Positions 33,926-49,357 of a DNA stretch of 64,000 bases are shown here, piece after piece. The stretch covers positions 43,690-107,689 of the IMG/VR virus record IMGVR_UViG_3300002092_001237; one strand, written 5' to 3'. The stretch comes from a virus. The stretch's first letter is position 1. Each line of letters opens with the position of its first letter. The notes below the pieces were generated by a model, which ran no database searches, was not told where the DNA came from, and worked only from the letters and a program-made list of their open reading frames with translations. Both the position numbers and the translations under genes were made by a program.

Positions 33926-33993
33926 ATGTTCTCCTAACTGTTAAACTTAGTATATAATATGCTAGCATTTCTGTCAACCTGATAAATATTGCT

Positions 33994-34943: not shown

Positions 34944-35549
34944 ATGACCGAAAAACAAACAATATTAGCGATGTATTCGGGAGGATTAGATAGTTTATAT
35001 ATGGTATATAAACTTTTAACTTCGGATGAATATTCAGATAAACGTGTACATATACATCATGTACACATTCATAATGTAGAAGATCGTTTTAAAGCAGAAG
35101 CATTGATGGTTAATGCTGCGTTAACAGAATTAAAACAACGCGGCTTTACCTTTATCTATAGTGAAAGCAAAATCTCTAGTCCGGCATTTCGAAAAAATAA
35201 CAAAGTGTCATATATATACGATTGGGACATTGTAAGATTTTATGCCGGTTGGATAGCCAGCGTAAATCCAGATATTAGTGCTATTGCCATTGGGCGTGAG
35301 CAGTCTGACGCTGGTGGATTTAACCAATATGATTCAGCCGATGCGTTAGTAAAATACTTTACAGACATTCCTTTGATATATCCAGTGTTAGACATGCACA
35401 AATACGAAATGTATGACAAATTACCAGACTGGTTAAAAGATAAATTCTGGAGTTGTCGTACGCCTATCTATCAAAATAATATTCCCACTAAATGTGGTTT
35501 TTGTGGTACTTGTAAAAAATTATTAAAATACAACATCGGTGGATCATAA
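34944..35549 (+). CDS. queC: QueC-like PP-loop ATPase (7-cyano-7-deazaguanine synthase family)
   Basis: YSGGLDS PP-loop; WSCR..CGFCGTC Zn site. Confidence 0.7.
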   Translation: MTEKQTILAMYSGGLDSLYMVYKLLTSDEYSDKRVHIHHVHIHNVEDRFKAEALMVNAALTELKQRGFTFIYSESKISSPAFRKNNKVSYIYDWDIVRFYAGWIASVNPDISAIAIGREQSDAGGFNQYDSADALVKYFTDIPLIYPVLDMHKYEMYDKLPDWLKDKFWSCRTPIYQNNIPTKCGFCGTCKKLLKYNIGGS

Positions 35550-35556
35550 ATAATCT

Positions 35557-35874
35557 GTGACAAGTTACATTTACATTATAGGTAGTGATAAGCCTCCTTA
35601 TAAAGTAGGCATTAGCAAAAACCCACAGCGTAGATTACGTGATCTCCAAACTGGACATCCTTATCCTCTCGCCATACATTCTATAATTGAAACTCCAACT
35701 TCTAATAATAAACTATTAGAAAGCATCATTCATCGTAATCTAAAGCATCTACGCACGAGCGGAGAATGGTTTGATATACCTTTAGAAGTACTTAAATTAG
35801 AAGTTGATTTTGTTATGATACGCTACAGCGAAGATTCTACGCTTAAAACGAGAATAACTCAGAATATATTGTAG
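35557..35874 (+). CDS. GIY-YIG (T5orf172-type) nuclease domain protein
   Basis: YIYII..YKVGISKNPQRRLRDLQTG..LE..H..GEWF. Confidence 0.82.
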   Translation: MTSYIYIIGSDKPPYKVGISKNPQRRLRDLQTGHPYPLAIHSIIETPTSNNKLLESIIHRNLKHLRTSGEWFDIPLEVLKLEVDFVMIRYSEDSTLKTRITQNIL

Positions 35875-35877
35875 TGG

Positions 35878-35953
35878 TGGTGCCCAATGACGTATTCGAA
35901 ACGCCGACCTACTGATTACTAATCAGTTGCTCTGCCAGCTGAGCTAATTGGGC
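35878..35953 (-). tRNA. tRNA-Thr(AGT)
   Basis: ACTGA-TT-AGT-AA-TCAGT, Thr-type GCC/GGC acceptor. Confidence 0.9.
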
Positions 35954-35995
35954 TCTATTTTACTTATATCGTATATTTCTATATGACGTCGAATC

Positions 35996-36069
35996 TGGCA
36001 CCCTGTCTAGGAGTCAAACCTAGGCCCTCAGTTTTGGAGACTGATGTGCTATCGTAACACTTACAGGAT
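35996..36069 (-). tRNA. tRNA-Trp(CCA)
   Basis: TCAGT-CT-CCA-AA-ACTGA, G73. Confidence 0.85.
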
Positions 36070-36071
36070 AT

Positions 36072-36149
36072 TGGTCTGCGTGGCTGGATTCGAACCAGCG
36101 GTCCCCTGACTCCAAATCAGGTATGTTAACCAGACTACACCACACACAG
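36072..36149 (-). tRNA. tRNA-Pro(TGG)
   Basis: C1-G72, A73; A37 rather than the usual G37. Confidence 0.9.
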
Positions 36150-36156
36150 TTAAATT

Positions 36157-36233
36157 TGGTCCGCCCTACGGGTGTCGATCCCGTTACTCTACCTTGAAAG
36201 GGTAGTGATATAGCCAGCGTTATCTAAGGGCGG
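36157..36233 (-). tRNA. tRNA-Glu(TTC), atypical
   Basis: CTACC-CT-TTC-AA-GGTAG, T-loop ATCGACA. Confidence 0.82.
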
Positions 36234-36237
36234 CTAA

Positions 36238-36340
36238 TTGTCTCTGCAAGGATACACTTGGTAAAACCGATTCCACATATTACCGTTCACTAGTCATCGG
36301 TCGACATAACTAGAAGGAAAGTGTATCCATGGAGAAACAA
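36238..36340 (-). ncRNA. Y-shaped structured RNA at head of tRNA array
   Basis: GGATACACTT/AAGTGTATCC stem extended by TCTC/GAGA, inner hairpins CTAGTTAT/ATGACTAG and GGTAA/TTACC. Confidence 0.55.
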
Positions 36341-36437: not shown

Positions 36438-36602
36438 TTAAACAGCGTGTACGTCTGTACTCTGTTTGTTTAACTTAGATTCTTTCTTTGCCTTTTTCTT
36501 TGCCTTTTTTTGTTCTACAATATCGTATATTTTTTGTTCTGTTTCGCGATCACCATTCTGGATAGCGTGAAATAATTTGGTTGCTAGTTCTGTCCATTTC
36601 AT
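36438..36602 (-). CDS. small basic protein (54 aa, below ORF-track cutoff)
   Basis: SD AGGGAG; MKWTELATKLFHAIQNGDRETEQKIYDIVEQKKAKKKAKKESKLNKQSTDVHAV. Confidence 0.65.
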   Translation of the reverse strand: MKWTELATKLFHAIQNGDRETEQKIYDIVEQKKAKKKAKKESKLNKQSTDVHAV

Positions 36603-36625
36603 TTCGTTTCTCCCTATATTCAGAC

Positions 36626-36661
36626 AACAAAAAACCCCGGTGACAATATGTTCCGGGGTTC
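36626..36661 (-). terminator. intrinsic terminator (attenuator)
   Basis: AACCCCGG-N12-CCGGGGTT followed by TTTTGTT. Confidence 0.85.
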
Positions 36662-36684
36662 CATGTGTATATGTGAATTACATA

Positions 36685-36765
36685 TTACAGCACAAGAACC
36701 CCCCTAGTCGGTTCCGACCAGCGATTAGATTTACTAAATGAACAAATAGTCATAGTGTTTCTCAT
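36685..36765 (-). CDS. putative attenuator leader peptide (26 aa)
   Basis: MRNTMTICSFSKSNRWSEPTRGVLVL; contains GGGGTTC complementary to the terminator 5' arm GAACCCC. Confidence 0.6.
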   Translation of the reverse strand: MRNTMTICSFSKSNRWSEPTRGVLVL

Positions 36766-36772
36766 TGTCTTT

Positions 36773-36803
36773 TATTTATACAATCTAATTAAGGGCTTGT
36801 CAA
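36773..36803 (-). promoter_or_regulatory. overlapping sigma70-like and T4-late-like promoter
   Basis: TTGACA-N17-TATAAA; the -10 box is part of TATAAATA. Confidence 0.65.
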
Positions 36804-36809
36804 GTCTGA

Positions 36810-37451
36810 TTATGAATTTTCTACAGGTGCAGTTAAAACTCGATCTAATTTCTTGCTTAGGTAATTTAGCAATACGCCATACACTGGCAGGATAACTAAA
36901 AGACTAACTATTAACTTAGTTCCAGTTTGGTTCATAGCGATAATGTGCCAATTCTCTGCCATATACGCATTTGCTGATTCATAGAACGCCACACCGAAGA
37001 AAGTGAAAGTGTCCAACACATTAGCAAATACTGCTGCAAGTGCCGGAGCAGCAAACCACATTGCAAAACGTTCACGTACCTTTTGGAATACGAAAACATC
37101 TAGCAAGCTAGAAACCAAATATGCACATCCACTCGCTACACCTATACGTAGTGCTACGCTTTCCGGTGCGCCGCCTGCTAGCACAACCAAGATACTGGCG
37201 ATAACAGCAGGAATAAATGCTATATTAATAACTGCCCGAGCATTCTCTTTATTGATAAGCCGGATAGTCAAATCAGTAGCAACAACTACTAGTGGAAATG
37301 TAAATGCTGCCCAAGTTAGTTTAATACCCCAGATATCAAATTTGATAGTCACGAGGTAGTTAGATAGTGCAATAATGAAAGTATGGAACAATACTAATTT
37401 TGCGATTAGCATTTTATCCATTCCGTCTAAACTAAAATATTTCTTTATCAT
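36810..37451 (-). CDS. yhhQ: VUT-family queuosine precursor transporter
   Basis: IIALSNYLV..TWAAFTFP..ATDLT..R..SQ-like LLDVFVFQK..DTFTFF; start at MIKKY because the longer ORF overlaps a tRNA. Confidence 0.85.
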   Translation of the reverse strand: MIKKYFSLDGMDKMLIAKLVLFHTFIIALSNYLVTIKFDIWGIKLTWAAFTFPLVVVATDLTIRLINKENARAVINIAFIPAVIASILVVLAGGAPESVALRIGVASGCAYLVSSLLDVFVFQKVRERFAMWFAAPALAAVFANVLDTFTFFGVAFYESANAYMAENWHIIAMNQTGTKLIVSLLVILPVYGVLLNYLSKKLDRVLTAPVENS

Positions 37452-37691: not shown

Positions 37692-37991
37692 TTAACATTC
37701 TTTCTCAGAGTTGTCAATCTCTTTTAACAGATCTTTTAAGTTTTGTTCCTGAAAAGTTTCCCAAAGTGGATCTGGGTCATATTTACAGTGATAGTATACG
37801 TCATCATCGTCCTCACCCCATACATGTACGATCGGACCATCTGGGTCCTCAGTCACAAACACAGTATGGAAAAAAAGACTGCTTGGATTCTTTTCTAGAT
37901 CTTCGTGTAGACGTACGAGATCCTGTAGAACTATATGTTCCAGTTCTAATACATTATCGGGTATTTCTTCATGCCATTTCAATTTTATCAT
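37692..37991 (-). CDS. hypothetical acidic protein
   Basis: ORF; start placed at MIKLKW, uncertain. Confidence 0.55.
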   Translation of the reverse strand: MIKLKWHEEIPDNVLELEHIVLQDLVRLHEDLEKNPSSLFFHTVFVTEDPDGPIVHVWGEDDDDVYYHCKYDPDPLWETFQEQNLKDLLKEIDNSEKEC

Positions 37992-47381: not shown

Positions 47382-49301
47382 TCAAGCGGCTTTATCTTTC
47401 TTCTCGTCTTTAACCTCTGTGAATGTAGCATCAACTACATTGTCGTCCTTTTTTTCCGCTGTTTCGGCGCCTTCGGGAGGAGCCATATTTTCGCTCATCG
47501 CTTTATACAATGGAGCAGCAGCTTCAAAGATCTTCGTAGTAGCTGTAGTAATAGCTTCTACATCCTCGCCTTTAGCAGCTTCTTCAATATCCGTAAGTGC
47601 TGCTTCGATCGTTGACTTCTCATCTTCAGTTAGCTTATCACCATGCTTAGTAAGCTCGTCGCGCATACTATTAACCTGACTTTCGGCATTATTACGTGCT
47701 TCGATGAGAGCACGTTGCTTTTTATCTGACTCTGCATTAGCTTCGGCTTCTCTGATCATCTGTTCGATCTCTGCTTCGCTCAGTCCGCTATTAGCCTGGA
47801 TAGTAATCTTCTGTTGTTTGCCAGTTCCTTTATCCTGTGCGCTTACGCTTAGGATACCGTTAGCATCGATGTCGAAAGTAACATCGATCTGTGGAACACC
47901 ACGAGGTGCTGGAGGTATACCTTCTAAATTAAACAAGCCTAATACTTTATTGTATTCTGCTAGTTCACGTTCACCTTGTCCAACCTTAATGGTAACTGCT
48001 GTTTGATTGTTATCAGCAGTACTGAAGATCTGGCTCTTCTTAACAGGAATAGTAGTGTTCTTTTCGATTAATTTCGAGAACACACCGCCCATGGTTTCGA
48101 TACCCAATGATAGTGGTGTAACGTCTAGCAATAATACGTCATTCTTATCACCACTTAGAACTGCACCTTGGATAGCTGCTCCTGCTGCTACTGCTTCGTC
48201 AGGATTCACATCCTTACGTGGTGCCTTGCCGAATAACTGTTCAACGACTTCCTGTACTTTAGGCATACGTGTCTGCCCACCAACAAGGATAACATCATCT
48301 ATCTGGCTTGGATCAAGACCTGCATCCTTTAGTGCCGTATTACAGGGAACAATACTACGTTGTATTAAATCGTCGACTAATGATTCAAACTTAGCACGAG
48401 TCAGCTTTATATTAAGATGTTTTGGTCCACTAGCGTCTGCTGTAATATATGGCATATTAACATCAGTTTGTGCAGAGCTTGAAAGTTCAATCTTTGCCTT
48501 TTCTGCGCCTTCTTTTAGACGCTGTAGTGCCATAGTATCCTTACTAAGGTCTACACCGTTTTCTTTCTTAAATTCGCTGATTAAATGATCAACGATACGT
48601 TGGTCGAAGTCTTCGCCTCCGAGGAATGTATCTCCGTTTGTTGAGAGGACTTCAAACTGTTTGTCTTCTCCTCCACTAATTTCGATGATTGAAATATCGA
48701 AAGTACCACCTCCGAGATCGTATACAGCAATCTTTCTATCACGTTTGTCCTCCTTATCTACTCCGAACGCCAAAGCTGCTGCTGTTGGCTCATTAATGAT
48801 ACGCTTTACATCAAGTCCTGCGATACGTCCAGCATCCTTAGTTGCTTGGCGTTGGCTATCGTTAAAGTAAGCTGGAACAGTGATAACTGCTTCTGTGACT
48901 TCATACCCGAGGTAATCTTCTGCTGTTTTCTTCATCTTACGAAGTATTTCAGCAGAAACTTGCTGTGGAGCCATTTCATTGCCGTTGGCTTTTACCCACG
49001 CATCACCGTTAGCTGCTTTTACGATATCATACGGGATATTCTTAATATCCTTCTGGATCGCTTCATCATCGAACTTACGTCCGATAAGTCTCTTAACTGC
49101 GAACAATGTATTTTTTGGATTTGTTACTGATTGACGTTTAGCAGGCGCACCGACTAAAATTTCTTCATCAGTATAAGCAATAATGCTTGGTGTTGTGCGG
49201 GCACCTTCCGCATTTTCTATAACCTTGGTTTTACCGCCTTCTAATACTGCGACACAACTATTAGTTGTTCCAAGATCGATTCCGATTATCTTACCCATCA
49301 T
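47382..49301 (-). CDS. dnaK: Hsp70 chaperone DnaK
   Basis: [25 protein letters not shown], full length. Confidence 0.98.
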
Positions 49302-49357
49302 GATTCTCCTTTTGTTAAGCAAGAAATAAATGCTGTATTCCGAAGCAATACAGCATT
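49302..49357 (-). promoter_or_regulatory. ROSE-like RNA thermometer of dnaK
   Basis: AATGCTGTATT/AATACAGCATT hairpin plus TCTTGCT-TAACAAA-AGGAGA. Confidence 0.65.

Follow-up and report, generated by a model that had tools for sequence, protein, structure and literature searches.

A leader element on the minus strand of a large phage genome, lying between a protein gene and a row of tRNA genes, is read here as a ribosome-mediated transcription attenuator placed ahead of phage tRNA genes. We give this reading a probability of about 0.7, and it is strongly supported by comparison across related elements. The window analysed, a stretch of 64,000 nucleotides, belongs to a 107.7-kb IMG/VR virus record that CheckV rates as 25% complete, which makes the source a very large phage; near-identical DNA is present in lake metagenomes of 12 studies. 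Phage tRNA genes are usually treated as passively co-transcribed and, to our knowledge, little has been established about how they are regulated.

Parts of the element and their positions

The element directly follows a yhhQ-like gene, whose stop codon was read at 36810-36812 on the minus strand, the strand of all the features described in this section. Its promoter consists of a -35 hexamer TTGACA (36798-36803) and a -10 hexamer TATAAA (36775-36780) separated by a spacer of 17 nt; with 11 of 12 matches to the sigma-70 consensus it is near-consensus, and from the spacing transcription is predicted to start at about 36766-36770. A leader ORF of 26 codons plus TAA occupies 36685-36765. Its ATG (36763-36765) lies 9 nt past the -10 hexamer, which is the same position as the 7 nt correctly given in an earlier note on this DNA, counted there from a longer -10 8-mer. 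The ATG is 0-3 nt from the predicted transcription start, so that the message would be leaderless or nearly so, and no Shine-Dalgarno sequence was found upstream of the ORF. Given this lack, and a distance of 9 nt from the -10 box instead of the 6-8 nt of most relatives described below, initiation on this leader may be weak.

The only Trp codon of the leader, codon 16 (36718-36720), on which the ribosome-masked folding described below bears, is held in a hairpin, P1 (36704-36721; 7 bp, GAAC loop, -9.5 kcal/mol), which does not take in the downstream pairing segment and may be a pause or spacing element. That segment, arm 2, is GGGGGGUUC (36696-36704), lies in codons 21-24 and forms the 5' arm of an antiterminator by pairing with 36655-36662 in the minimum-energy fold, which bears out the complementarity noticed earlier between the last leader codons and the 5' arm of the terminator. 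Inside the antiterminator helix, folding places an inner AU-rich hairpin (36664-36694). Arm 3, GGAACCCCGG (36653-36662), is by reading and by folding a shared segment, being at once the 3' arm of the antiterminator and the 5' arm of the terminator.

The terminator is completed by its 3' arm (36631-36640), with CCGGGGUU at 36633-36640, and a U-tract (36625-36640 together), giving a hairpin of -15.9 kcal/mol with a stem of 8-10 bp, a 12-nt loop (36641-36652) and a U6 tail, positioned between the leader ORF and the genes that it would control. It is the only canonical terminator on the minus strand in a wider scan of 37500-33000, and is missed by a standard terminator scanner, whose limit for the loop is 8 nt against the 12 nt found here. 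Behind it, a GGGAG ribosome-binding site 19 bases past the U-tract leads a 54-codon gene (36438-36602), the first cistron, encoding a basic helical protein. A structured gap RNA (about 36238-36340) then precedes tRNA-Glu, the first of the tRNA-Glu, Pro, Trp and Thr genes called at 35878-36233. The order of parts first described for this locus, namely promoter, 26-codon ORF, terminator, small gene, structured RNA and tRNAs, is present in full.

Two mutually exclusive folds and the position of the ribosome

For the 156-nt transcript the predicted folding energy is -55.6 kcal/mol (z = -6.4), a value that was matched by none of 200 shuffled sequences. The antiterminator domain, at -21.1 kcal/mol against -15.9 for the terminator, is the structure present in the minimum-energy fold, and the two are mutually exclusive; in a growing-chain simulation, the antiterminator is complete before the 3' arm of the terminator exists. 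An upstream complement of at least 7 nt to the 5' arm was present in 5% of 151 control terminators without tRNAs behind them. The combination of parts and pairing seen here is more than chance.

The effect of a translating ribosome was modelled by masking a 29-nt footprint and moving it codon by codon, which yields equilibrium (thermodynamic) predictions. Without a ribosome, the antiterminator has a predicted probability of 0.98, and no anti-antiterminator (1:2) pairing was found in this leader. With the A site on codons 9-17 the antiterminator is predicted at 0.56-0.99, and at 0.99 on codons 14-17; codon 18 (Glu) gives a mixed outcome, and from codon 19 through the stop the terminator prevails at 0.96-1.0. 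The Trp codon is thereby the next to last position at which a stalled ribosome would leave the antiterminator arm free. Codons 2-8 are a second stretch on which a ribosome would favour the terminator at equilibrium; we give this little weight because the antiterminator forms first during transcription, and unless folding kinetics dominate it would make the sensing window narrow. Overall, the masked folds predict that translation to the end of the ORF should terminate transcription and that a delay before about codon 18 should allow readthrough. This is in line with the earlier proposal that a ribosome reaching the end of the ORF lets the terminator form and one held upstream favours the antiterminator.

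The same predictions bear on the four codons just before the switch that the earlier note had matched to the first tRNAs downstream. TGG keeps its place in the permissive region, GAA is the codon with the mixed outcome, and CCG and ACT fall where the terminator is favoured. A sensing role for the Glu, Pro and Thr codons does not hold.

Genes within reach of the switch

On the minus strand of the window, 21 tRNA genes were called. The suggestion that the switch gates the whole array does not hold, as tRNA-Gly and tRNA-Ser sit upstream of it and near-consensus promoters lie inside the array at 33977, 32480, 31527 and 27385. Its immediate reach is better defined. A separate promoter for the first tRNAs, the arrangement that would have spoken against the attenuator, was not found at 9 or more of 12 matches between the terminator and tRNA-Glu, so that the 54-codon gene, the structured RNA and tRNA-Glu, Pro, Trp and Thr can all come under the switch; its reach may extend to the next block, which has weaker promoter-like sites only. 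Transcripts from the promoter at 36803, as well as those arriving from upstream via tRNA-Gly, tRNA-Ser and yhhQ, run into this terminator.

Several features of the surrounding genome were recorded along with these. Record G000 (window -34035 to 61222) contains about 25 promoters of the form TTGACA-N16-18-TATAAT with 10-12 of 12 matches, nearly all on the minus strand and often reading GTTGACAA, and the near-consensus promoters at 37717, 31527 and 27385 point straight into a tRNA. Two plus-strand genes at 34944-35874 lie antisense within the tRNA row, where readthrough from the switch would cross them antisense; by their N-terminal motifs alone, we take one to encode a QueC-like PP-loop protein and the other a small T5orf172/GIY-YIG-like protein. 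A DnaK/Hsp70 gene (47382-49322, minus strand) shares about 67-70% identity with DnaK genes whose records carry the labels Pseudomonas, Acinetobacter, Salmonella and Escherichia, which hints weakly at a proteobacterial host.

Proposed mechanism

In the mechanism that we propose, a strong host-type promoter would start the transcript nearly at the AUG of the 26-codon leader ORF. As the RNA grows, the G-run at the end of the ORF would pair with the 5' arm of the terminator, the antiterminator thus being both the first structure to form and the more stable one. If the leader is untranslated or slowly translated, polymerase would run on past the terminator and transcribe the 54-codon gene, the structured RNA and tRNA-Glu, Pro, Trp and Thr. 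A ribosome following closely enough to stand on codons 19-26 or on the stop would instead cover the G-run and let the terminator form, and transcription would then end at about 36629-36634. Output would rise when the ribosome is delayed at about codons 9-17, the sole Trp codon among them; the likely signal would be slow decoding, that is, a shortage of charged tRNA, and the response would be more phage tRNA. Leader translation, the start and end sites of the transcript and the physiological trigger are what we infer in this scheme, and anticodon nucleases or starvation are putative triggers. Large phages that carry this switch would then probably make their own tRNAs when ribosomes slow.

Close variants and a family in other large phages

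The closest DNA comes from lakes. A lake contig whose YhhQ is 96% identical (L082) agrees with the window at every one of the 172 nt that run from the -10 box to the U-tract, with 5 changes in the promoter spacer and about 10 in the next ORF. Lake DNA runs X8 and X18 have no differences listed inside the element, and in them the body of yhhQ differs by 6-8%. A metatranscriptome (X20) gave no contig over 36248-37143, which speaks neither for expression nor against it. In both L082 and the X18 contig, window positions 36097-36321 (225 nt holding the structured RNA and tRNA-Glu) are swapped for about 84 other bases (1137-1221 in L082), so that tRNA-Glu and the structured RNA before it are missing. 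The leader is identical nevertheless, and this natural variant speaks against the tie drawn earlier between the Glu codon of the leader and tRNA-Glu. These close variants show conservation without variation and so, taken alone, cannot separate constraint on RNA from constraint on coding. Synteny with yhhQ was abandoned as a basis for comparison, the next YhhQ relatives (L002 at 83% and L083 at 77%) having other genes after yhhQ; a single-protein scan and an exact 30-mer scan of viral contigs gave no match. In one relative (L326, 1501-1597, minus strand; the same site in L346, record G029), the terminator of the family directly follows yhhQ, whose stop is just past a 5-nt arm-2-like CAGGG; there the end of yhhQ may act as the leader ORF, or the hairpin may be a plain terminator.

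A search of viral contigs with three arms and free spacers gave 28 loci, and the whole layout was present in 24 of these 28 arm-pattern matches. Together with two further scans, which used two variant terminator sequences only and left arm 2 unspecified, it defined a family of elements of about 150 nt, carried by uncultured large phages and comprising 71 distinct leader ORFs that fall into 41 groups. Conservation in relatives of a short ORF and an alternative pairing, which the earlier note had made a check on its reading, is thereby seen in 41 leader groups, always ahead of tRNA rows. The leader ORFs have 23-57 codons (24-47 among the first loci) and end at the antiterminator arm, and their promoters match the consensus, often at 12 of 12. 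In most members the ATG comes about 6-8 nt (up to 10) after the -10 box; other members have a 5' UTR of 20-36 nt, some of them with a weak AAGG site or a GTG start. The stop of the leader lies 7-29 nt past the first base of arm 2, and the arm is read in all three phases. Predicted energies range from -17 to -24 kcal/mol for the antiterminator domain and from -16 to -20 kcal/mol for the terminator, and every member has a hairpin between arms 2 and 3, differing in sequence each time.

The plain, that is closest, homologues of the window are L173 and L183, which are near-identical to it from the -10 hexamer into the transcript start; in L173, by reading of the sequence, hairpin P1 keeps its register by two double compensatory changes. 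A covariance model built on these sequences detected the element once in each record, a complete 374-kb genome among them, and gave no hit in phiCbK (JX100813). In divergent members, one of them in that genome, arms 2, 3 and 4 have all changed and both pairings are kept. Arm 2 also tracks the flank of arm 3, which the search patterns had not fixed (AAGACCC/GGGTCTT, AGGACCC/GGGTCC and CTGAACC/GGTTCAG). Pairing of the antiterminator helix in the model alignment amounts to 79.6% and drops to 64% and 56% if the helix is offset by a single column. Of 500 shuffles, 9 reached its covariation score, a modest figure given the small variation in the arms and the misalignment of eight rows with long leaders. 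Covariation in the terminator was discounted, both of its arms having been fixed by the search patterns.

Other parts of the element are shared to differing extents. In subfamilies B, C, D, E and H the first cistron after the terminator encodes a basic helical protein 49-61 residues long, and the motif LTxEQ...L.Q.K..RA is common to the first-cistron proteins of B, C, D and H; the copy in the window is very divergent, and no Pfam or PHROG family was found for the protein. Most subfamilies carry the terminator loop ACUAAACAC almost unchanged, also on stems of different sequence, which suggests a second function; the window has another 12-nt loop. The GenBank phage collection gave no match at the DNA level to this element or to the leader of subfamily A, and none at the protein level to the 54-residue gene or to the small protein of subfamily C, and no cultured carrier was found there. 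Pattern matches in bacterial genomes fell almost only in high-GC Actinomycetota and Chloroflexota; from the species list alone they were read as chance, and they give no clue to the host.

Association with tRNA rows

Behind the element, same-strand rows of 7-26 tRNA genes were present in 12 of 12 records (18 kb each), and in 4 of those 12 there was no tRNA within 6 kb upstream. For a count over the terminators from the two scans that had left arm 2 unspecified, the switch was defined as a complement of at least 7 nt to the 5' arm upstream, with an ATG ORF of 20-60 codons ending there. The terminators counted had at least 1 kb of downstream DNA and were classed with tRNAs when at least two tRNA genes lay within 2.5 kb downstream. 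Switch and ORF occurred together at 37 of 51 terminators with tRNAs and at 0 of 118 without (Fisher p = 4.7e-26, to be read with the reservation that members share descent and the counts are not independent).

Two observations concern the arrays themselves. In that of L335 (record G007), ARAGORN calls a tRNA with a CUA anticodon, of amber-suppressor type, about 1.8 kb upstream of the switch, and tRNA-Ile(UAU) was called in the arrays of L342 and L343.

What the leaders encode

Trp is encoded in 68 of the 71 leaders and in 39 of the 41 groups, His in 62 leaders and Cys in 59. At a median length of 40, the leaders hold on average 18.1 distinct amino acids, and 19 or 20 are reached by several leaders of just 25-42 residues (compared with windows of phage proteins, p from 3e-4 to 0.02). 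Within groups, pN/pS ranges from 0.3 to 1.4, a weak constraint on the peptide, which suggests that it is the ORF that is kept and not the peptide. Subfamily A, where the switch lies in the middle of the array, allows a closer comparison. Its leader codons match the tRNAs downstream (0.94 versus 0.73, p = 0.003); this leader encodes no His, Tyr or Arg and not more than one Asp or Glu, and the tRNAs upstream of the switch are Glu, Tyr, Asp, His and two Arg, with one more Arg far downstream.

The leader in the window has no run of one codon, as had been noticed, and encodes 15 amino acids in 26 codons. It is the least diverse of its group, with a diversity at background (p = 0.29). Nor does the match between its codons and the tRNAs downstream, on which the sensor proposal had drawn, rise above background here (0.72 versus 0.64, p = 0.29). 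The composition of the leaders as a family fits a multivalent decoding sensor. A fuller version, in which a leaderless mini-gene of nearly all amino acids with an invariant Trp gauges the decoding speed of the host and any hungry codon opens the tRNA row, would close the loop of tRNA supply; we regard it as possible, at somewhat less than even odds. If it is true, the phage would be able to make good, only at times of need, the tRNAs that host shutoff or tRNA-cutting defence nucleases take away.

The constancy of Trp raises the question of whether the same architecture could be a sensor specific for tryptophan, in which the near-invariant UGG does the sensing and a feedback loop supplies tRNA-Trp, its gene often being first behind the switch. 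Besides the frequency of Trp in the leaders, this reading can draw on position: in 22 members measured, the Trp codon (the upstream one if there are two) lies at least 18 nt upstream of arm 2, and in the window this codon is within the antiterminator-permissive stretch. In about 7 of 11 subfamilies, one of the first three tRNAs after the switch is tRNA-Trp, against about 15% for random order, yet it comes 13th and 17th in the rows of subfamilies B and G, and the leader of G has no Trp codon. A single codon is also a weak device beside the tandem codons of known attenuators, and the UGG always sits within a hairpin stem, where constraints on the RNA may contribute to its retention. High diversity, together with the match between leader and tRNAs in subfamily A, points to many codons counting, and we consider a tryptophan-specific sensor unlikely.

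Alternative readings of the leader

The way in which these leaders would be initiated permits another account, in which the switch reads the efficiency of leaderless initiation and not tRNA supply. It would act as a timer of infection stage, poor 70S initiation on a 5'-terminal AUG causing the tRNA block to be transcribed. The ATG at 6-8 nt after the -10 box in most members and the antiterminator probability of 0.98 without a ribosome are both what this account would lead one to expect. So is the contrast with other genes of this locus and its homologues, which have clear ribosome-binding sites, and with the genome at large, where a Shine-Dalgarno-like 4-mer precedes 49 of 88 long ORFs. It leaves unexplained, however, why leaders should run to 23-57 codons, sample nearly all amino acids, keep Trp and, in subfamily A, mirror the tRNAs, and some subfamilies have a 30-nt 5' UTR with a weak AAGG site. 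We hold a pure initiation timer to be quite unlikely.

A structured RNA that is not translated at all, either a small RNA gene or a leader binding a protein, a ligand or tRNA, would give the ORF no role. The very stable fold (z = -6.4), in which the 5' end pairs with the 3' end, would suit such an RNA, as would the invariance of the element in close variants, synonymous sites included, and the conservation of the loop ACUAAACAC in many subfamilies. Across the family, however, an ORF from the transcription start to arm 2 is kept in 41 groups that cannot be aligned with one another, and in all three phases. Outside the arms there is no conserved sequence able to form a binding pocket, and no Rfam family matched 36600-36810 at E up to 1. 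It is the reading frame that is conserved and not the sequence outside the arms, which is not the pattern of a stand-alone small RNA gene, and an untranslated RNA is in our view very unlikely.

A nascent-peptide sensor of the TnaC type, in which the conserved Trp in the exit tunnel would arrest the ribosome on a metabolite, has the conserved Trp, weakly similar N-termini and a stop close to the switch to recommend it, but arrest peptides such as TnaC and SecM need a fixed spacing to the peptidyl-transferase centre, and here anything from 10 to 24 codons separates Trp from the stop, the residues in that interval lack conservation and pN/pS is near 1; the resemblance was dropped on the ground of this spacing, and the reading is hardly credible.

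Comparison with known systems

If the attenuator reading is true, this would be the first control of tRNA genes by attenuation, in a multivalent and leaderless form of the textbook mechanism. It would give a handle on the near-complete tRNA sets of large phages, whether these serve codon supply, host shutoff or counter-defence, and a compact natural part that reports the speed of translation. Full-text searches of the published literature found no attenuator ahead of tRNA genes.

The known systems resemble the element in different respects. T-box riboswitches are alike in outcome, low charged tRNA stabilising an antiterminator, but they bind tRNA directly, by a specifier loop and the T-box sequence, and have no ORF; the element has no Rfam match. 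The leaders of vmlR (PMC9226507), mef/mel (PMC4335068) and yxjB (PMC6851288) use the same kind of switch, in which slowing of the ribosome on a short uORF without a codon run is read out and full translation terminates. They differ from it in responding to drug-stalled ribosomes, in controlling protein genes of Firmicutes and in having ribosome-binding sites, and they show no sequence homology to the phage element. Mycobacterial leaderless polycysteine short ORFs (bioRxiv 10.1101/834739) likewise place a decoding sensor at the head of an operon, but carry runs of Cys codons, sense one amino acid and have no tie to tRNA genes.

The nearest published case is the trn operon of Anabaena, a silent array of 26 tRNA genes that is induced by translational stress and controlled by the ribbon-helix-helix repressor TrcR (PMC8421152, PMC10272220). 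As proposed here for the phage, impaired translation turns on an accessory tRNA array; the regulator there is the TrcR repressor, and neither an attenuator nor a leader nor a terminator is mentioned in the 2021 paper.

In mechanism, the closest likeness is to the enterobacterial leaders trpL, hisL, leuL, thrL and ilvL, which have the same short leader ORF, intrinsic terminator and overlapping antiterminator, with the fold set by the ribosome. Compared with that class, the phage element lacks a run of one codon, sampling nearly all amino acids instead, and its mRNA would be leaderless or nearly so, with no Shine-Dalgarno lead. It also has no 1:2 anti-antiterminator, so that untranslated RNA would read through, unlike that of the trp leader. 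Finally, the genes controlled here are tRNAs and the carrier is a phage.
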